Assembly: GCA_049304095.1 (NCBI GenBank)
Contig: JBAQNU010000024.1
Span: 87,644-151,643, forward strand
Direction: 5' to 3'
DNA length: 64,000 bases
From: Candidatus Moraniibacteriota bacterium
Lineage (GTDB): Bacteria; Patescibacteriota; Minisyncoccia; Moranbacterales; UBA2206
The notes under the pieces are model-generated. The model had not been told where the DNA came from, searched no databases, and saw nothing but the letters and a program-made list of their open reading frames with translations. A program made the translations under genes and the position numbers. Shown one piece after another: positions 663 through 33,171 of the stretch; position 1 is the first letter of the stretch; every line of letters starts with the position of its first letter.

Positions 663-682
663 AAAATAATTTAAAAATATTT

Positions 683-2583: not shown

Positions 2584-2593
2584 TAATAATTTT

Positions 2594-3700
2594 ATGGACA
2601 TTGCTCAAATTCAAACTATTCCTGAAGTTGTAAATGCGATGAAAGTGCTCCTTACTGGCTTTTTGGCTTTTGTGATTGCCTTTGCCCTCACTCCGCTCAT
2701 GACTCATTTTTTATATAAATATAAAATTGGAGTCAAAATTAAAACTAATGATGTTTCTGGGGAAAAATTGACTTTTGTCAGTGAGATGCACAAGCATAAA
2801 AGTGGCACGCCAGTGATGGGCGGTATTTTGGTCTGGTTTAGTGTGCTTATTTTAGTCTATGCTTCACATTACCTTTTTCCTTTGATTGCACAATGGACCG
2901 GAGTCAATTTTTTTGCGCGATTGGACTTTCTTAGTCGCAAGCAAGTTTGGTTGCCACTTTTCGCACTTGTGGCGGCTGGAATCTTGGGACTTTGCGATGA
3001 TTGGGCGAGTGTCAAAGGCTTGGGAAAAAACAAGGGCGGTGGGATTAGATTTCTTTCTCGTTTTGGCTGGCTGATTGCTATTTCCGCCTTGGGCGCTTGG
3101 TGGTTTTTCGCTAAATTGGGTTGGGACAAAGTGCATCTTCCGGCAATGGGGGATTTTAGTATTGGTTTTTGGTATATACCGCTTTTTATGTTTATTATCC
3201 TTTTCACGGCAATTTCTTCCAACGAAACGGACGGATTGGATGGCCTTAATGGTGGAGTACTGCTCATTGCCTTTAGTTCATTTGCGCTGATTTCTTTTTC
3301 GCAAAACAAGATGGATCTGGCGGCTTTTTGCGCAGCTATTTCCGGCGCGCTTTTGGCTTTTCTTTGGTTTAATATCTATCCCGCACGTTTTTTTATGGGG
3401 GATACGGGTGCGGTTTCTTTGGGAGCGACGCTTGGCGTGGTGGCGATGCTTACTAATTCAGCCTTGGTTCTCTTGGTGATTGTTTTTATCTATATTCTAG
3501 AATCAGGTTCAGTCGTGATCCAACTCACCTCCAAAAAACTATTCAAACAAAAAGTTTTCCTGGCAGCACCGCTCCATCATCATTTTGAAGCTAAGGGTTG
3601 GCCAGAAACAAAAGTGACGATGCGCGCCTGGATTTTCACGCTGGTCACTGCACTCATTGGCGTGATTGTGGGAATCTTGGGAATGGGGAAATATCATTAA
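2594..3700 (+). CDS. mraY: Phospho-N-acetylmuramoyl-pentapeptide transferase (MraY; polyprenyl-phosphate GlcNAc-1-P transferase superfamily)
   Basis: HKHKSGTPVMGG, LGLCDDW, NETDGLDGL and MGDTGAVSLG motifs; about 10 TM segments. Confidence 0.8.
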   Translation: MDIAQIQTIPEVVNAMKVLLTGFLAFVIAFALTPLMTHFLYKYKIGVKIKTNDVSGEKLTFVSEMHKHKSGTPVMGGILVWFSVLILVYASHYLFPLIAQWTGVNFFARLDFLSRKQVWLPLFALVAAGILGLCDDWASVKGLGKNKGGGIRFLSRFGWLIAISALGAWWFFAKLGWDKVHLPAMGDFSIGFWYIPLFMFIILFTAISSNETDGLDGLNGGVLLIAFSSFALISFSQNKMDLAAFCAAISGALLAFLWFNIYPARFFMGDTGAVSLGATLGVVAMLTNSALVLLVIVFIYILESGSVVIQLTSKKLFKQKVFLAAPLHHHFEAKGWPETKVTMRAWIFTLVTALIGVIVGILGMGKYH

Positions 3701-3718: not shown

Positions 3719-4840
3719 ATGAAAATTGCCATTCAAGCGGCGGACCTCGATGCAAGAAGAATTGATGGTACCCGCGTCTATATCCTCAATCTGCTCAAAT
3801 TTTTTGGACAACTGGACATTACTAGCAAGTTTTTGATCTATCATCGAAAAAAATTTAATCCGGAACTCATTCCGCCGGATTTTTCCAACTACGAAATTAT
3901 TCAAAAAAGCGCACCATTTCTCTGGACGCAAACGCGCTTTGCCTATGAGCTCAAAAAAGACTTGCCAGACGTGCTTTGGATGCCGATGCAGGCCTTGCCT
4001 CTTTTGCGACCAAAAGGCATGCAGACTGTGATCACGGTGCATGATTTGGCTTTCAAAGTTTTTCCCAAGATGTTCCCCAAAAAAGATTTATGGCAATTGA
4101 ATTTTTATGCTGATTATGCGATTAAAAATTCCGACAAAATTATTGCTGTTTCTGCCTCGACGAAAAAAGATATTTTGCGATTTTATCCTAAAATTAATCC
4201 GCAAAAAATTCGGGTGATTCATCATGGTTTCGACGCGGAATTATTTTCTCAAAAAATCGACAAGGAGACGCAAAAAAGATTTCGAGCGAAATATTTAATT
4301 GACGACGCACCCTATTTGCTCTATGTTGGAGCGATTCAGCCGCGCAAAAATCTGGTTACATTAATCGAAGCTTTTGGAAAGCTAAAAGAGACCGGCAATT
4401 ATCCTAAGCTGAAATTAGTTTTGGCTGGCGCGCCGGCTTGGCAAGCGGAAGGCACGCTCGAGGCGGTGCAAAACTCACATTATTCCAAGGAGATTATTCT
4501 CACTGGACGAGTTAGTTTTTCTGATTTGGCTAAATTTTATCAGTGCGCAGATGTATTTATTTTTCCTTCACTCTATGAAGGTTTTGGCATTCCTATTTTG
4601 GAATCTTTCGCTTCCGGCACGCCAGTTATTTGCGCCAATAATTCTTCACTTCCAGAAGTGGCAGGGAACGCCGCACTCTATTTTACCAGTGGAGACGTAG
4701 CTGAACTCGAAACTAAAATTAAAGAAATATTGGAAAATGCTCCATTGAAAGAAAACTTGATCAAAAAAGGTTATTTGCGCTTGGAAGAATTTTCCTGGGA
4801 AAAATGCGCCGAGGAATCTTTGGAGTTTATTAAAATCTAG
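3719..4840 (+). CDS. GT-B glycosyltransferase (GT4-like / glycosyltransferase group 1)
   Basis: C-terminal EGFGIPILESFASGTPVI...E motif typical of retaining GT4 enzymes. Confidence 0.75.
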   Translation: MKIAIQAADLDARRIDGTRVYILNLLKFFGQLDITSKFLIYHRKKFNPELIPPDFSNYEIIQKSAPFLWTQTRFAYELKKDLPDVLWMPMQALPLLRPKGMQTVITVHDLAFKVFPKMFPKKDLWQLNFYADYAIKNSDKIIAVSASTKKDILRFYPKINPQKIRVIHHGFDAELFSQKIDKETQKRFRAKYLIDDAPYLLYVGAIQPRKNLVTLIEAFGKLKETGNYPKLKLVLAGAPAWQAEGTLEAVQNSHYSKEIILTGRVSFSDLAKFYQCADVFIFPSLYEGFGIPILESFASGTPVICANNSSLPEVAGNAALYFTSGDVAELETKIKEILENAPLKENLIKKGYLRLEEFSWEKCAEESLEFIKI

Positions 4841-4846
4841 AGTTAT

Positions 4847-5030
4847 AGAAATTGCGCGTTTACCTTCACAGCTGTATTTTCTAAAAAAATAACTCGAACG
4901 CTCTTTTTTCTTTTCAAAACTTTCCCTCCCTCGACGGCATCCAATGGAAAGTTTTGAAGAAAAAAGGCATTCTCAGACAAGATTTTTTTAGAAAATCCAG
5001 CTGACTCAGGTAAGGGTGCAAGCAAGTCGT
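4847..5030 (+). mobile_element. Copy 2 of the MITE-like repeat, flanked by a perfect 7-bp direct repeat gagttat (4840-4846 and 5031-5037) that overlaps the stop codons of both convergent flanking genes
   Basis: Conserved core shared with copies 1 and 3. The flanking helix sequence differs from the other copies but keeps pairing through compensatory changes. The minus-strand ORF 4843-5025 is an artefact. Confidence 0.7.
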
Positions 5031-5033
5031 GAG

Positions 5034-6827
5034 TTATTTATTCAAAAGATAAATTTTGCCGTTCGTGGTGTTTTCTGTTTTTTGTGGCAAGCCAATTGGA
5101 GCACTAGGCATTTCTTCTGGGTCAAAGGTGGAAAGGAAAGTCCTATCCAGTGCATAATCTTTGTAGACGCTAAATTTAGCAAGAAATCCATCCTTCTCAT
5201 AGAAGGCTAAATTTTTATCGGGAACAATTAGATAGACATTGGAAAATTTTGTTGTGTCAATTTTAGCCAAATCATTGGGGTTAAAAAAATAGACTGCATT
5301 TTTGCCAAAGAGAAAACTCATGGGTGCGCCGAGCATTGACCAGCCATCGCCAGAAGCCAAGCGGTCAACAAGGATAAGATCGGTGTTGGAAAAATTTTCG
5401 CTAAGCTGGTTGGTTTGCGCAGTCAAGTCGGCGTTTTCTCGGAAAGTGAAATAGGGCCAAGAAATAATTAGGTTGGTAATGATTAGAATACTAATCAAGA
5501 TTGACGCATAGATTTTTTTGGTAAACAGTCGATCAATGACGAGAATGGAATAAAAAATCGCTCCAGGAATAATAGTGAAAGCAAAACGTCTGAGCATCCA
5601 GGGATGATCGAGTGAGATGCCGGGATGAATGAGATAGATGAAGGTGGGCAAAATTATGAGAGCAGGCACGAGAATGACGTAGTTTCTTTTGAGCAAAAAA
5701 TAGCTTAGTCCGATTGCTCCAATGATCAGAAATGGCAGGATGTTATAGAGAGAGAATATTTCAAAGAGATAACTAACAGCGGAAAAAGGCACAGAACTGC
5801 TTTCGCCAGGTGAAAATGAGCGTAGAAGACCTTTGAGAGAGGCTAGGTAGAATTGATTATTGACAAATATATTGATGAGATAGACGAAAAAAAATCCGCC
5901 CAAGAGCCAGACTGTTTTTTTCAGTAGTGTTTTTTCCAATCCAAACTTAGTCTTTTTTTGAACTATGCCAAACAGGACTAATAGCATCAAAAGAAATGCC
6001 CAGGTTTCTATTCGAGTGAAAGTGAGGATGAGAAAGGCCGAGAGCGCACCTAGAAGATAGAGAGACTTTTTGAATTTGAAAAATAGGCTGAGCTCTAAAA
6101 GACCAAACCAAATAAAGGCTAGTGCGATATTTTCGCTGAGTGTGAATTTGAAAAGCCAGGCGAAAACAAACGAACTGAAAAGACAACCAAACGCCCAAAA
6201 AGCCGGCTTGGTCGAAGAGTGAAGTTCCGTGAGTAGGAAAAAAGCTAGAAGGAAAAGAAAGAATGTGATGCTGTTGGCAATGACGAACCCAATGAGGCCA
6301 AAGAGGGAGTAGAACGTTGCTAGCCATGCAATGTAGCCAAGGGAAAAATGGGTAATCAGGCTTCCTGAGCGAGTATAATTGAAGCCGGGAAAATTGAGCG
6401 CCGTGCCTGGGCCATAGATTTTGAAAAATTCTTGCGAAGCGGTTGAGCTAAAGGCTAATTGATGATTTTGCGCCAGGCGCACGGCTGCTTCGCTAAAGGA
6501 GCCTTGGTCGCGTCCAGAAAAAACAGTTGGCACAAAAGAGAAGGCTAGGAAAATAATAAAGCCAAGCGAGAGGAATGTAGCGGAAAGGAAACTGGCTGAT
6601 TTCAAAGCTTGACGATTGTGAACGAAAAGCGAGAGGAAGAATGAGCCACCGAAAAAAAGATAGCCAGCCAAAATCGGCCAATAGAAAAAATTAGTTAGCG
6701 CGAGCACAATTGCCAAAACTTCCAGGCCAATGAAAAAGAGTCCTAGAAAAGAAAATAGCTGGTATTTGTTGAGGTTTTTTGGTAGTTTCATTATTCCAAT
6801 TATAGCGTCAAAAATTCTTTTTGCCAA
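5034..6827 (-). CDS. Multi-pass membrane protein, probable GT-C-fold glycosyltransferase (ArnT/PMT-like)
   Basis: More than 10 TM helices N-terminal with an RDQGSFSEAA loop after TM segments (resembles the DE/RDE motif of GT39/GT83 enzymes); soluble C-terminal domain; sits in the glycan locus. Confidence 0.4.
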   Translation of the reverse strand: MAKRIFDAIIGIMKLPKNLNKYQLFSFLGLFFIGLEVLAIVLALTNFFYWPILAGYLFFGGSFFLSLFVHNRQALKSASFLSATFLSLGFIIFLAFSFVPTVFSGRDQGSFSEAAVRLAQNHQLAFSSTASQEFFKIYGPGTALNFPGFNYTRSGSLITHFSLGYIAWLATFYSLFGLIGFVIANSITFFLFLLAFFLLTELHSSTKPAFWAFGCLFSSFVFAWLFKFTLSENIALAFIWFGLLELSLFFKFKKSLYLLGALSAFLILTFTRIETWAFLLMLLVLFGIVQKKTKFGLEKTLLKKTVWLLGGFFFVYLINIFVNNQFYLASLKGLLRSFSPGESSSVPFSAVSYLFEIFSLYNILPFLIIGAIGLSYFLLKRNYVILVPALIILPTFIYLIHPGISLDHPWMLRRFAFTIIPGAIFYSILVIDRLFTKKIYASILISILIITNLIISWPYFTFRENADLTAQTNQLSENFSNTDLILVDRLASGDGWSMLGAPMSFLFGKNAVYFFNPNDLAKIDTTKFSNVYLIVPDKNLAFYEKDGFLAKFSVYKDYALDRTFLSTFDPEEMPSAPIGLPQKTENTTNGKIYLLNK

Positions 6828-27967: not shown

Positions 27968-29983
27968 TTAAGTAGTAGAAATTGGATCAATGTCAATGTT
28001 CCAGCCAGCATGGAGAGTTTTGAGGATTTTTGTTGCCTCCTCTGGCAGCGCCAAGTTGAATTTAATAATCAGTTGTTTAGAAAAACGTCCGCGGACCTTT
28101 GGCACAAAAGCTTCCTGGGGTTCAGTTATTCGCAGACTATTTTCAATAGCAACTAATTGCTCAAAAACCGCTTTTGTTTCAGTGTCAACCTTTTTTTTAT
28201 TATAATCTTGAAAGGTCAATTTGGCAATTTTTCCGAGAGGGGGATAGCTGAGTGCTTCGCGATCAGCCAACTCTTTTTGATAGAAGGAGAGATAATTTTT
28301 TTCGGCTACTGCCGCGAGAAATTTGTTTTGTGGGTGATAGGTCTGCATAATCACTACCCCTGGAAAGCGTGCGCCGGGACGAGCTACTCGACCAGACAGT
28401 TGCACGAGATCAGCATAAGCTTTTTCTCCCGTGTTCCAACTAGGAAAAGTTAAAAGGTTGTCGGCGTCAATCACGGCGACCAGCGCCACACGTGGCAAAT
28501 CCCATCCCTTGGTGATCATTTGGGTGCCAATGAGGATGTCGAATTCACCGCGGGAAAATTCTTGATAGGCCTTTTGTTGAAAATCTTTAGTCTTGGCGTT
28601 TTGTGCGTCGATGCGTAAAATTTTAGCTTCTGGAAAAAGACTCGCCACTTCTTTTTCCACTTTTTGCGTGCCCAGGCCAATATTGCGAAAAACAATTTTT
28701 TTACACTTGGAGCATTCAGGAATAACTGGCGAGCGATAATTGCAAGAGACACAGCGATACTCTCCTGTATTGCCATAAACTAATGCGCGATCGCACTTGG
28801 GACAGCGCAAAACGGTCTTGCAAGCGTCACAAACAGAAAAAGCGCTCATGCCTTGGCGGTTAATAAAAAGAATGACCTGCAAGCGATTTTTGAGCGCATA
28901 ACTGATTTCTGCTTTAAGTTTTTTGGAAATACAAGAATAGTTTTTAACCCAGCGTTCTTTTTTCATGTCCACTAAAATTGTTTCCATTGGTGGTTGTTTG
29001 AGTCGGTCTAATTTTAGCGGTGGCAGTTCAAGCAGTTGAGCCGTTCCGATTTGCGTCCGATAGAAAGATTCCACTCTTGGTGTGGCAGAACCGAAAACAA
29101 TCTGGCAGTCATATATCTCTGCCAGTTTTTCCGCTACCGTTCTAGCGTCATAGCGCGGGCTCATATCCCAAGACTTGAAAGACATGTCTTGTTCTTCATC
29201 AATCACAATGAGCGAGAGTTTTTGAAAAGGTGCAAAAATGGCCATGCGTGTGCCGATAATAATTTTCGCCTCGCCAGAGGCGATGCGCGACCAGTTGGCA
29301 AAAAATTCTCCGGCAGAGAGATTACTACTGAGTAGTGCGATCTCGTTTGGATTAAAATAGGCGCCATAACGTTCTAGTGCTTGTGGCGTTAATGTTTTTT
29401 CTGGTACTAAAATCAAAAATTGATTTTCGGGATTTTGTTTTTTGAACTCGATGACGGAGTGAATATAGACTTCTGTTTTTCCTGCTCCGGCTGGACCGAA
29501 AAGCAAGTAAGTTCTATTTTTCGCAGCGTCTTTTTTTGAATTAGTTTTGGAAATCAATATTACAGCTTTTTTTTGTTCTGGTGTTAATGTAATCTTTGGC
29601 GTTATTTTCTCCCCGATAGTTATCGTGGATTTTTTTGGTTTTGTTTTTTGGGATTTTATTACAAAGCTTTTGAGCACAACGCCAAGTGACGAAAAATAAT
29701 ACCCAGAAATATATTCGGCTAATTTGAGTTGTTGTGCTGTGAGAAAATTTTCCTCCAAAACTTTCTCGATTTTTTTAAGCACCATTCCACCTGAGCGAGA
29801 AAAATCAGATTTACTTTCAATCACAACACCGGAAATAGTTTTTCGTGAAAAAGGAATAGACACCAATGTTCCGGCGGATAATTTTTTACTCGCTAGGTAA
29901 TAGAAAAACTGCTCGCGACTAAGCGGGATTTTGACGAGCGGAACAACGCTAAGGATGAATTGTTGTCCTTTTTCTTTTGCCAT
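27968..29983 (-). CDS. priA: Primosomal protein N' (PriA helicase)
   Basis: Walker A GPAGAGKTEVY, DEEQD box, two CxxC...CxxC zinc motifs. Start trimmed to MAKEKGQQ because the longer ORF N-terminus (AELVDAHDSKSCGSN...) is the translated tRNA gene. Confidence 0.8.
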   Translation of the reverse strand: MAKEKGQQFILSVVPLVKIPLSREQFFYYLASKKLSAGTLVSIPFSRKTISGVVIESKSDFSRSGGMVLKKIEKVLEENFLTAQQLKLAEYISGYYFSSLGVVLKSFVIKSQKTKPKKSTITIGEKITPKITLTPEQKKAVILISKTNSKKDAAKNRTYLLFGPAGAGKTEVYIHSVIEFKKQNPENQFLILVPEKTLTPQALERYGAYFNPNEIALLSSNLSAGEFFANWSRIASGEAKIIIGTRMAIFAPFQKLSLIVIDEEQDMSFKSWDMSPRYDARTVAEKLAEIYDCQIVFGSATPRVESFYRTQIGTAQLLELPPLKLDRLKQPPMETILVDMKKERWVKNYSCISKKLKAEISYALKNRLQVILFINRQGMSAFSVCDACKTVLRCPKCDRALVYGNTGEYRCVSCNYRSPVIPECSKCKKIVFRNIGLGTQKVEKEVASLFPEAKILRIDAQNAKTKDFQQKAYQEFSRGEFDILIGTQMITKGWDLPRVALVAVIDADNLLTFPSWNTGEKAYADLVQLSGRVARPGARFPGVVIMQTYHPQNKFLAAVAEKNYLSFYQKELADREALSYPPLGKIAKLTFQDYNKKKVDTETKAVFEQLVAIENSLRITEPQEAFVPKVRGRFSKQLIIKFNLALPEEATKILKTLHAGWNIDIDPISTT

Positions 29984-30037
29984 AGGTTTATTCCAGTATA
30001 GCAGAAAAAGGGATATTTGGGGAAGATTTTTGCTTTG

Positions 30038-30121
30038 TGCCAAAGGAGAGAATCGAACTCTCATGGGATTACTCCCGCACGATTTTGAGTCGTGTGCGTC
30101 TACCAATTCCGCCACTTCGGC
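30038..30121 (-). tRNA. tRNA-Leu (anticodon CAA) with long variable arm
   Basis: Reverse complement folds as a cloverleaf: acceptor stem GCCGAAG/CUUUGGC, D arm, anticodon loop CUCAAAA, 16-nt variable arm, T arm GAGAGTTCGATTCTCTC. CCA is not encoded. Confidence 0.8.
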
Positions 30122-30166: not shown

Positions 30167-30958
30167 ATGGCAAAGATTATTTCATTAGTCAACCAAAAGG
30201 GCGGAGTGGGCAAAACTACCTCGGCCATTAACCTTGCGACATACCTTGCGTCAGCAGGGAAATTTGTGCTCCTTGTTGACCTTGATCCGCAGGGCAATGC
30301 TTCGTCAGGTCTGGGAATTGACATCCGTTCAGTCAAAAAAAGCCTCTATCACACAATGATTTTGGGGGAACACCCGAAAAATGTCATTATGCGTACGGAA
30401 ACATTGGGACACGATTTGATGCCTTCATCGCAAGATTTGGCCGGAGCGGGGATTGAGCTTGTGCACATGGACAATCGCGAATTTCGACTCTACAATGTTC
30501 TGCGTGAAATTCGTACCAGCTATGATTACATCATTATTGATTCGCCACCGAGCCTCGGATTGCTCACGATTAACGGCCTCGTGGCAAGTGATGAAATCAT
30601 TATCCCTGTCCAGACAGAATATTTCGCCCTAGAAGGCTTGAGCCAACTTTTGAATACGATCAGCCTTGTGAAAGAAAATTTACAACCCAAGTTGAAAATT
30701 ATGGGAGCGTTGCTCACGATGTATGACAAGCGCAATCGCTTGTCGCGTCAAGTGGTGAAGGAAGTGCAAGATCATTTTCCCGGGCATGTTTTTGACAGCG
30801 TGATTCCACGCAGTGTGCGCTTGGCTGAAGCGCCAGGATTTGGCAAATCAATCTTAGGATTTGATGCATTTTCTCGTGGCGCGAGGTCATATAAAAGTTT
30901 TGCGAAAGAAGTGATTGGCCTTGAAAAGACAGAGGAGCCAAGAAAATTTAGTGTTTAA
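30167..30958 (+). CDS. parA: Chromosome partitioning ATPase ParA/Soj
   Basis: Deviant Walker A KGGVGKTT; followed by parB. Confidence 0.85.
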   Translation: MAKIISLVNQKGGVGKTTSAINLATYLASAGKFVLLVDLDPQGNASSGLGIDIRSVKKSLYHTMILGEHPKNVIMRTETLGHDLMPSSQDLAGAGIELVHMDNREFRLYNVLREIRTSYDYIIIDSPPSLGLLTINGLVASDEIIIPVQTEYFALEGLSQLLNTISLVKENLQPKLKIMGALLTMYDKRNRLSRQVVKEVQDHFPGHVFDSVIPRSVRLAEAPGFGKSILGFDAFSRGARSYKSFAKEVIGLEKTEEPRKFSV

Positions 30959-30978
30959 AAGATTTATTTAAATAATAT

Positions 30979-31157
30979 AGGAGCTACGCATTTCACCTCG
31001 CAGCCGCATTGACTAAAAAAATAACTCGAACGCTCTTTTTTCTTTTCAAAACTTTCCCTCACTCGGCGGCATCCAATGGAAAGTTTTGAAGAAAAAAGGC
31101 ATTCTCAAACAGGATTTTTTTAGCCAATACGGCTGACTCGGATAAATGCGTAGGTCA
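30979..31157 (+). mobile_element. Copy 3 of the MITE-like repeat, inserted between the parA stop and the parB start
   Basis: Near-identical to copy 1 (same ends aggagnTACGCATTT ... AAATGCGTAgGTC). Degenerate AT-rich flanking repeats (aaataat / aaataaa). Confidence 0.7.
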
Positions 31158-31169
31158 TGAAATAAAAAA

Positions 31170-32102
31170 ATGGCACAAAATTATGGATTAGGTCGGGGAC
31201 TTTCTTCACTTATTCCCCAAAAAGCAAAAAAACTGACTGAACCAGAAGCGGATTTTAATTATTTTGGCTCAGGAAAAAGAGAGGAGAATGATAAGATTGC
31301 ACCAACTAGTGCGCCAAAGTTGATTGAAGACAATGAAGTCGAGATTTCGCGCATCGTGCCCAATCCACATCAACCGCGTTTTCATTTTGATGAAACGAAA
31401 TTGCAAGAGTTGGCCAATTCCATCAAAGAGCATGGCATCATCCAACCGATTGTGGTGAGCAAAAATAATGAAAATAGTTTTGAAATTATTGCCGGGGAAC
31501 GGCGTTTTCAGGCTGCCAAACTGGCGGGACTACTGAAAGTGCCGGTGGTGGTGCGTGATGTAACAGAGCAACAAAAACTAGAGCTGGCGATTATTGAAAA
31601 CATTCAACGGCACGATTTAAATCCAGTGGAAGAGGCCAGATCATATCAAAAACTAATTGATGAGTTTGATTTGAGTCAAGAAGAAGCGGCCACAAAACTT
31701 GGTAAGAGTCGCTCTTCCGTGGCGAATAAGTTACGAATTTTAAGTTTGCCGGTGGAGATTCAAAAAGCGCTGATGGAAGGCAAGATCACCGAAGGTCATG
31801 CCAAGGCAATTCTCGCCATTGAAAACCCCGAAAAGCAAAAAGCGCTATACGAGCTAATTTTGAAAAGTGGTCTGACGGTGCGTCAAACGGAAGAGAAAAC
31901 CAAAGAAGTTTCCGTACGCACACACAAACGCTTAGTCAATGTCGACCCAGAGCAAAAAGCTCTAGAAGACAATCTTTCGCAAGCCCTGAAAACAAAAGTC
32001 AAACTGCAAAAATCCGGCACCGGCGGAAAAATTGTGATTGAATTTTATTCCCAAGAGGAGTTGCAAAGCATCGCAGAGAATATCGAGAGGATTGGGAGAT
32101 AA
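31170..32102 (+). CDS. parB: Chromosome partitioning protein ParB/Spo0J
   Basis: ParB box IIAGERRFQAAKLAG and HTH domain. Confidence 0.85.
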   Translation: MAQNYGLGRGLSSLIPQKAKKLTEPEADFNYFGSGKREENDKIAPTSAPKLIEDNEVEISRIVPNPHQPRFHFDETKLQELANSIKEHGIIQPIVVSKNNENSFEIIAGERRFQAAKLAGLLKVPVVVRDVTEQQKLELAIIENIQRHDLNPVEEARSYQKLIDEFDLSQEEAATKLGKSRSSVANKLRILSLPVEIQKALMEGKITEGHAKAILAIENPEKQKALYELILKSGLTVRQTEEKTKEVSVRTHKRLVNVDPEQKALEDNLSQALKTKVKLQKSGTGGKIVIEFYSQEELQSIAENIERIGR

Positions 32103-32708: not shown

Positions 32709-32960
32709 GTGCTAATGTCGTGGTATAAAGTAATTAATTATATGCGTAAAATTGATCTAAAAAATGTGGTTTGGAAAGAGGGGGAGTATTATGTTGCCCA
32801 GTGTTTGAACGTGGACGTTTCTAGCTTTGGAACAACCAAAAAAGAGGCACTGTGCGCATTAGACGAAGCACTTGAATTATATTTTGAGGATATAAAAGTT
32901 CCCAAAGTGACTAGCATTGAAAGACCGGAACTTGTCCAAATGTCAATTTGCCATGCCTAA
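32709..32960 (+). CDS. hicB: HicB-family antitoxin (UPF0150, RNase-H-like fold)
   Basis: 83-aa protein with the YVAQCLNVDVSSFGTTKKEALCALDEALELYFE pattern; overlaps hicA by 8 nt (ATGCCTAA). Confidence 0.6.
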   Translation: MLMSWYKVINYMRKIDLKNVVWKEGEYYVAQCLNVDVSSFGTTKKEALCALDEALELYFEDIKVPKVTSIERPELVQMSICHA

Positions 32961-33171
32961 ACTTTATTCATCTTCAGAAATTATCAAAGTCCTGCAAAAA
33001 CGGGGCTTTGTTTATATTTCCCAAAAAGGCAGTCACGCAAAATTTAGAAAAACTGCCAGTCCAACCTTGACAGCGATTGTTCCAGCGGGGAAAAGAGAAA
33101 TTCCTTTTGGAACTTTCAGATCAATTTTGCGTCAAGCTAATCTAAGTGAAGATGATTTTAGGAAAAAATAA
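32953..33171 (+). CDS. hicA: HicA-family mRNA interferase toxin
   Basis: GSHAKFRK...VPAGKREIPFGTFRSILRQANL matches the HicA/YcfA family. Start set to MPKLYSS, overlapping the hicB stop. Confidence 0.6.
   Translation: MPKLYSSSEIIKVLQKRGFVYISQKGSHAKFRKTASPTLTAIVPAGKREIPFGTFRSILRQANLSEDDFRKK

Follow-up and report, generated by a model that had tools for sequence, protein, structure and literature searches.

A probable MITE-like foldback element of Candidatus Moraniibacteriota in the parA-parB junction

What holds parA and parB apart in this genome? In the 64-kb stretch of Candidatus Moraniibacteriota DNA analysed here (the window, meaning the whole stretch; L-numbers such as L001 denote loci retrieved from other contigs), parA (30167-30958, + strand; Pfam AAA_31/CbiA/ParA match) is followed by parB (31170-32102, + strand; ParB_N, HTH_ParB and ParB_C match) after a spacer of 211 nt. 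Most of this spacer is a 180-nt imperfect palindrome, AGGAGCTACGC...GCGTAGGTCAT, at 30979-31158 on the + strand (copy C), whose AGGAG begins at 30979, 20 nt past the parA stop codon, and whose 3' end at 31158 lies 11 nt before the parB ATG. An earlier note had placed a repeat here with coordinates that are correct within one base; it gave the length as 179 nt and the end as 12 nt before the ATG. As RNA, the spacer is predicted to fold into a single long hairpin (-66.7 kcal/mol, z = -7.2 relative to shuffles). The evidence set out below makes it probable that this sequence is a copy of a non-autonomous, foldback-type transposable element resembling a MITE (miniature inverted-repeat transposable element): the element is small, has no coding capacity, carries terminal inverted repeats, is flanked by target-site duplications, and exists as dispersed copies with presence/absence polymorphism.

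The orthologous loci of the closest relatives, retrieved via their ParB and MraY homologues, reveal the junction in its element-free state. The parA-parB spacer measures 24 nt in L035 (ParB 92% identical), 11 nt in L036 (84%) and 12 nt in L038 (83%), confirming the suggestion in the earlier note that something had been inserted into a normally tight junction. That the extra sequence is instead ancestral spacer, or an artefact of assembly, is scarcely credible: nothing favours an artefact beyond the source being a metagenome-assembled genome, the family recurs in independent assemblies, and the short, element-free spacers of five relatives provide empty sites that refute both ideas.

The window contains three copies, all on the + strand, and a scan of its full length with a covariance model (R1) finds exactly these three. 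Copy A (2405-2583) lies between dacA (1359-2390), which encodes a Peptidase_S11 D-Ala-D-Ala carboxypeptidase, and mraY (2594-3700), and ends 10 nt before the mraY ATG, just as the earlier note had it in drawing attention to the shared geometry of the two insertions. Copy B (4847-5030) lies between the convergent genes 3719-4840 (+, a GT1 glycosyltransferase) and 5034-6827 (-). The elements are 179-184 nt long with ~35% GC, and are 93.5% (A/C), 89.3% (A/B) and 86.5% (B/C) identical to one another (BLAST E-values 1e-55 to 1e-77); a 30-nt probe from the element had 0 matches in 100 shuffles. Because each copy scores ~146 bits with R1 on the + strand and ~40 bits on the - strand, its orientation is unambiguous despite the palindromy. 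At the copy A site, the dacA-mraY spacer is 19 nt in L043 (MraY 92% identical), 17 nt in L041 (94%) and 6 nt in L044 (84%), and at the copy B site in L043 just 2 nt separate both convergent stop codons. L035 and L043 come from the same sample, so in the nearest relatives none of the three window sites is occupied.

Comparison of filled and empty sites shows a 7-bp target-site duplication at copies A and B. Copy A is bracketed by TAATAAT at 2398-2404 and 2584-2590 (+ strand; compared with L041 and L043), and removing the element together with one TAATAAT leaves TTTTTTATAATAATTTT, which has the 17 nt of the L041 spacer and differs from it at 1 base. Copy B is bracketed by GAGTTAT at 4840-4846 and 5031-5037 (+ strand): the empty site in L043 reads CTAGAATTATTTATTC, the filled site CTA-GAGTTAT-element-GAGTTAT-TTATTC. 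The left duplication includes the last base (G) of the GT1 stop codon TAG, and within the right one lies the TTA at which the convergent gene stops (TAA on the - strand); both flanking open reading frames (ORFs) are left undamaged. A further copy, in L009, has the 7-bp repeat AAAACTA on both sides. Across the 19 copies of the main family, flanking direct repeats have a mean length of 4.58 nt, compared with 3.62 +/- 0.24 in permuted left/right pairings (P = 2e-4), and reach at least 5 nt in 10 of the 19 where 4.1 are expected (permutation test, P about 4e-4). The targets are AT-rich 7-mers, mostly ending in T.

These duplications narrow the range of possible mobility mechanisms. REP sequences go together with a RAYT gene and leave the target unduplicated, as does single-strand transposition of the IS200/IS605 type. 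Mobility as a REP/REPIN or as an IS200/IS605 PATE is therefore contradicted by the 7-bp duplication, and the element is 180 nt long with ~35% GC. A Correia- or IS630-type MITE would be expected to duplicate TA, and the 7-mers seen, TAATAAT and GAGTTAT, exclude mobility of that type.

The family extends well beyond the window. Patterns drawn from the conserved core, run once against genomes and once against metagenomes, yielded 24 real loci; seven other pattern matches (L004, L008, L012, L016, L019, L021 and the viral L032) lie in GC-rich DNA and are due to chance. With 27 copies in these 24 contigs and three in the window, there are 30 copies at 28 independent sites on Moranbacteria-like contigs, in independent assemblies from NCBI, JGI, ENA and Logan. 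The flanking genes are unrelated housekeeping genes with no conserved synteny: the sites include rpoB-rpoC (L001), rplO-secY (L009) and histidine kinase-response regulator junctions (L003, L007), and others adjoin polyprenyl synthase-UppS, glycosyltransferase, ftsX, ftsK, ruvB and tilS-like genes. The idea of a 6S- or SRP-type RNA, encoded by an orthologous single-copy gene and differing in its stems from species to species, was rejected, as the flanking genes of the variant copies described below all differ and Rfam gives no 6S or SRP match. More broadly, Rfam 15 places no family on the element at gathering threshold and nothing specific at E <= 10; the only hit at threshold in the window is a tRNA elsewhere, and what scores best below threshold is a set of generic hairpins, at 26 bits where 55-140 would be needed. 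No match to the element was found in phage or plasmid collections, and a literature search returned no MITE report for repeats of the candidate phyla radiation (CPR)/Patescibacteria. Nor does the element appear to encode a small peptide: the single ORF inside it, which begins in the apical loop and has 15 codons, is not conserved, and the start codon is lost in L020 and subfamily 2.

Over its whole length the element is an inverted repeat, with termini AGGA-N-TTACGC / GCGTAA-N-TCCT (also written AGGAGTTACGC...GCGTAAGTCCT); its ends AGGAGTTACGCGTTT / AAACGCGTAAGTCCT are complementary at 14/15 positions in L025. Its place between co-oriented ORFs prompted a comparison with integron attC sites, which have R''/R' core sites (RYYYAAC...GTTRRRY) and are found with cassette genes and an integrase close by. 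This identity was rejected on the termini, AGGAG...GTCRT, and on the flanks, which are essential housekeeping genes and not cassettes; an integrase was not searched for. In L041 (1143-1203) and L042 (844-904) the scpA-scpB junction holds a 60-nt short form that has kept just the outer arms (AGGAGTTACAC...GTGTAAGTTGT), at a site that is empty in the window (663-682) and in L043. Both arms contain a GGCT, and the junction of the short form lies in this repeat, which indicates an internal deletion of a full-length copy. Because deletion within a continuous palindrome accounts for the short form, insertion of the core into the loop of a pre-existing short hairpin was rejected for the main family. 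Separately, in a full-length copy in L023 (1562-1791) the 3' internal loop of the core has gained a GC-rich mini-palindrome of 20 nt, CCTGCCTACCGGCAGGCAGG.

Within the hairpin, the arms and the core have evolved very differently. In copy C the conserved core as defined by R1 spans 31009-31129 (+ strand; 146 bits on +, 40 bits on -). From its 5' side it comprises the A7 stem (31015-31022), the conserved AACTC that forms the 5' side of an asymmetric internal loop (31023-31027), and the near-invariant 5' strand of the inner stem P2 (31028-31057, GAACGCTCTTTTTTCTTTTCAAAACTTTCC). A variable apical loop of 20 nt (31058-31077; mean pairwise difference 0.21) leads into the 3' strand of P2 (31078-31104, GGAAAGTTTTGAAGAAAAAAGGCATTC), the 3' side of the internal loop, TCARACAGG (31105-31113), and the T7 stem (31114-31121). 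In the 19 main-family copies, 94% of the cells of the 67-pair hairpin are paired, and double-sided changes occur at 16 pairs, in comparison with 7.7 +/- 1.6 in column shuffles (0/500 reached 16) and 3-6 in slid controls. This excess indicates that pairing has been maintained. Between copies, the outer arms show a mean pairwise difference of 0.24; for the A7/T7 stems, the AACTC loop and the inner-stem strands (27-30 nt) the value is 0.00-0.04.

Six variant copies (L001, L011, L015/L027, L020, L024 and L030/L031) retain the core at >105 bits, and their basal stems, unrelated in sequence, are nearly perfectly complementary over 25-33 bp. Two observations concern these variants individually. In the L015 variant, 20 nt of the basal arm (AAAGAATGGGGAAATAAAAA) match L018:1544-1563 exactly, within the coding sequence of a DIE2/ALG10-like membrane protein; the match may be due to chance, or the arm may derive from coding DNA. 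In L024, a bidirectional terminator-like hairpin (AAAAAACTGCCAG...TGGCAGTTTTTTT, 1300-1345) adjoins the variant copy downstream of a T2SSE ATPase gene.

Several of our observations sit uneasily with an ordinary MITE. The duplication at copy C itself is degenerate or ambiguous: relative to the empty site of L035 (TTTAAATACAAAAAAATG), an imperfect repeat TAAATAA (30969-30975) ends 3 nt (TAT) before AGGAG, and GAAATAA (31159-31165) directly follows the element, so that 6 of 7 positions match and 3 extra bases remain on the left. The ~110-nt core is ~10 times less variable than the arms, making the interior and not the termini the most conserved part. The same core recurs with unrelated arms in the six variants, among which a flanking direct repeat is found only in L011 (TTTGAT), and this is not predicted if a transposase reads terminal inverted repeats. 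No transposase was found next to any copy, and no autonomous partner or transposase with matching ends in ~300 kb of window and retrieved loci; a genome-wide search was not made. Furthermore, at the sites that are informative for orientation (those with co-directional genes on both sides, convergent and divergent sites being uninformative), the element points the same way as the genes at 16 of 19 and is opposed at 3 (binomial P = 0.004), or 15 to 1 in the main family alone, a bias that hints at selection beyond selfish spread. Lastly, one variant occupies the same site in both L015 and L027, downstream of a tilS-like gene, and the element is identical at 147/151 positions (97.4%) compared with 84.6% over the other 1249 bases of the alignment (Fisher P = 1.4e-6); of the four differences, two compensate each other as a pair in the arms. 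This excess of conservation over the flank is a hint of selection, that is, of constraint after insertion; alternatively, since ~50 nt upstream of the element is also nearly identical, it could reflect a local recombination tract.

Could the element, then, be an exapted cis-acting RNA, a former mobile repeat whose hairpin is now selected as an intercistronic processing or stability site? At parA-parB, for example, an enzyme of the RNase III type would cut within the 26-bp inner stem, and the two cistrons would thereby become independent in half-life and translation. The co-orientation with flanking genes, the near-invariant core present in every copy and the conservation of the L015/L027 element, compensatory pair included, are all consistent with such a role, and there is precedent in Correia elements, which RNase III cuts, and in ERIC sequences, which alter mRNA decay through RNase E (PMC10969869, PMC2649163, PMC3184786). 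The strand preference of the hairpin argues in the opposite direction. It is the reverse-complement strand that folds better, in 25 of 27 copies and by a mean of 9.7 kcal/mol (Wilcoxon P = 1e-5); for copy C the values are -83.7 (antisense) and -66.7 kcal/mol (sense). Scored on strand-specific pair lists, G.U cells outnumber A.C cells 64 to 22 on the antisense strand, whereas on the sense strand A.C outnumber G.U (39 against 25), the reverse of what selection on a sense RNA should produce. The flanking genes moreover share no functional theme, and it is the sequence of the stem and not pairing alone that is conserved, which is atypical of a purely structural RNA signal. On balance we regard an exapted RNA as unlikely. 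No RNase III signature motif was found in the 64-kb window, which is uninformative for the whole genome.

The same strand asymmetry raises the possibility that the element acts as DNA, with the inverted repeat, or a hairpin that the strand opposite the genes extrudes, serving as a protein site in the manner of REP/BIME sequences. It would then offer two half-sites of ~25 bp around a fixed, 20-bp variable spacer to a transposase, a nucleoid protein or gyrase; in one variant of this idea the hairpin belongs to a single-stranded intermediate of the element's own mobility, and the orientation bias follows the direction of replication and not of transcription. The conserved inner-stem sequence with its variable spacer between the halves fits this picture, as does the fact that the better-folding strand is the one absent from mRNA. 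GC skew in the flanks is positive on the element strand almost everywhere, so that replication-linked and transcription-linked bias are inseparable, and both the homogenisation of the arms in L014 and the GGCT-GGCT deletion of the short form are typical of DNA hairpin or slippage events. Set against this, the 7-bp duplication contradicts single-strand transposition of the IS200/IS605 or REP/RAYT type, no candidate protein is linked to the element, and the G.U/A.C asymmetry stems from ~4 high-frequency alignment columns and hence few independent events. We consider a DNA-level site of this kind improbable.

The earlier note had also proposed that the element might donate a promoter or terminate transcription, and neither proposal is supported. 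Scans for sigma-70 promoters and for terminators gave no consensus match within the element on either strand. A very stable hairpin beside U-rich sequence might suggest an intrinsic terminator or attenuator, and some MITEs do create promoters or terminators (PMC10969869). A GC-rich stem followed by an unpaired U tract is not what the element has, however: inside the hairpin its U7 run pairs with the A7 run, and it lies at a distance of 10 nt from the inner stem. Sense-oriented copies also occupy rpoB-rpoC, rplO-secY, dacA-mraY and parA-parB, upstream of essential promoter-less genes such as rpoC, secY and mraY. Since the parA-parB and dacA-mraY spacers of element-free relatives are 6-24 nt, too short for a promoter, transcription must read through the element, and a strong terminator is thereby excluded in the sense orientation. 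A terminator, attenuator or mobile promoter is thus very improbable.

The position of the element between stop and start codons likewise calls for no functional explanation, because in very short AT-rich spacers any insertion will end within 10-20 nt of both. Ahead of the parB and mraY start codons, 11-16 nt are preserved. The 5' AGGAG was considered as a Shine-Dalgarno (SD) site brought near the start codon by the hairpin, and this was rejected, SD sites being rare in the window and the empty parB site having none. Across the window, only 5 of 63 long ORFs have an SD-like 4-mer at -20 to -4; what comes before the start codons is A/T-rich runs, and 49/63 ORFs lie on the + strand.

Compared with known repeats, the element is a previously undescribed family of a familiar kind, with no sequence relation to Chunjie, bcr1, Correia or ERIC elements. 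Bacterial MITEs favour AT-rich targets, are flanked by direct repeats, form stable transcript hairpins and, in the case of Chunjie, enter operons without disrupting them (PMC10969869, PMC3184786). Chunjie (Geobacter uraniireducens, 178-235 bp) is the closest case: like it and other MITEs, the element is small, non-coding, AT-rich, dispersed and polymorphic, has inverted and direct repeats, forms a stable hairpin transcript and is tolerated in operons (PMC10969869). It differs in its sequence, its 7-bp duplication, an interior more conserved than the termini, the lack of a known parent insertion sequence and its CPR host. The bcr1 repeats of the Bacillus cereus group (~155 bp, group A repeats) also vary in distribution between close strains, carry short direct repeats, are transcribed with neighbouring genes and keep their structure by compensatory changes (PMC3184786), but their direct repeats are 5 bp and their fold is a two-stem, cruciform-like one, in place of 7 bp and a single long hairpin.

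Correia repeat-enclosed elements of Neisseria share the arrangement of inverted repeats around a conserved core and the insertion near genes, and their transcript duplex is a substrate of RNase III that can alter adjacent gene expression (PMC2649163, PMC10969869); TA duplication, an IHF site and promoter creation are Correia features not seen here. ERIC/IRU sequences of Enterobacteriaceae are, like the present element, imperfect palindromes of >100 nt in transcribed intergenic regions, operon spacers included, and their effects on mRNA decay depend on orientation (PMC3184786), but they have a TA flanking motif, are enterobacterial and show no similarity to it. With REP/REPIN-RAYT systems it shares hairpin-forming intergenic repeats, maintained pairing and the suggestion of a single-stranded intermediate; REPs, however, are 20-40 nt, GC-rich and carry GTAG or CGTC tags (PMC3733652), whereas this element is 180 nt long, AT-rich and flanked by a 7-bp duplication.

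How would a MITE-like element come to reside in parA-parB? We envisage that a DDE-type transposase supplied in trans would make a 7-bp staggered cut in AT-rich spacers, and that the resulting duplication would regenerate adjacent stop codons and keep an A/U-rich region before the next start; with both contexts preserved, insertions in essential operons would survive. At parA-parB the element would be transcribed within the operon as a long hairpin between the cistrons, without terminating transcription. The junction would have lengthened from ~12-24 to 211 nt with loss of stop-start coupling, and at most the insertion would break translational coupling and offer a long duplex to a double-strand-specific RNase. 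Most likely, the parA-parB element is a co-transcribed passenger hairpin, and if the ParA:ParB ratio is affected at all, this would be a by-product. The processing or attenuation that the earlier note imagined as setting stoichiometry is possible, judging from the long, near-perfect duplex predicted for the transcript.

What this scenario leaves unexplained are the hyper-conserved core with swappable arms, the orientation bias combined with a better hairpin on the opposite strand, and the L015/L027 conservation. The near-invariant core and the compensatory changes in the arms suggest recognition of the core sequence within a hairpin, by the mobilising machinery or by a host factor, and not of the termini alone. 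Taken further, the ~110-nt core (the A7/T7 stem, the AACTC / TCARACAGG loop and a fixed stem of 26-30 bp) would be a sequence-specific functional module that moves together with interchangeable palindromic arms, a reading that we consider rather doubtful. In one version, mobility may depend on the hairpin, with an enzyme that reads the core and cuts the base of whatever stem carries it, on the strand opposite the genes. In another, the core may be a CPR-specific platform for binding a protein or RNase, retained by host operons under purifying selection.

The surroundings of parA and parB offer some further observations. Directly upstream of parA and divergent from it is a tRNA gene (30038-30121, - strand; Rfam, 57 bits). 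A mechanically called 715-aa ORF (27968-30115; PriA-like by the annotation of L033) overlaps this tRNA gene; because it runs into the tRNA, its true start must lie further downstream, and parA would then be the first gene of its transcription unit. Downstream of parB, a methyltransferase gene is followed by a small pair, DUF7387 (weak) / HicA_toxin, at 32709-33171. The closest relative (L035:3496-4224) has different small genes at this position, with flanking relA/spoT and topA syntenic, and the position appears to be a variable islet. Another Moranbacterium (L039:2309-2500, also L040), with a ParB 80% identical, has a parA-parB spacer of 192 nt filled by an unrelated palindromic element of ~135 nt, GTCATCCTGAGCG...CGCTCAGGATGAC (-66.6 kcal/mol), with a small A/T-flanked hairpin before it. 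As the two elements are unrelated, the parA-parB junction has been invaded independently by another family of hairpin repeats.

Together, the insertions in rpoBC, rplO-secY, dacA-mraY and parAB show that the small, streamlined genomes of CPR bacteria still host active mobile DNA, and the element can serve as a marker for strain-level divergence. The filled and empty sites are natural experiments on how a 180-nt, -67 kcal/mol hairpin affects operon expression in an organism largely without Shine-Dalgarno sites. Should the core prove functional, it would represent a new type of cis element or a new logic of transposition; otherwise this is an ordinary MITE, which annotators should mask instead of inferring regulation from it.

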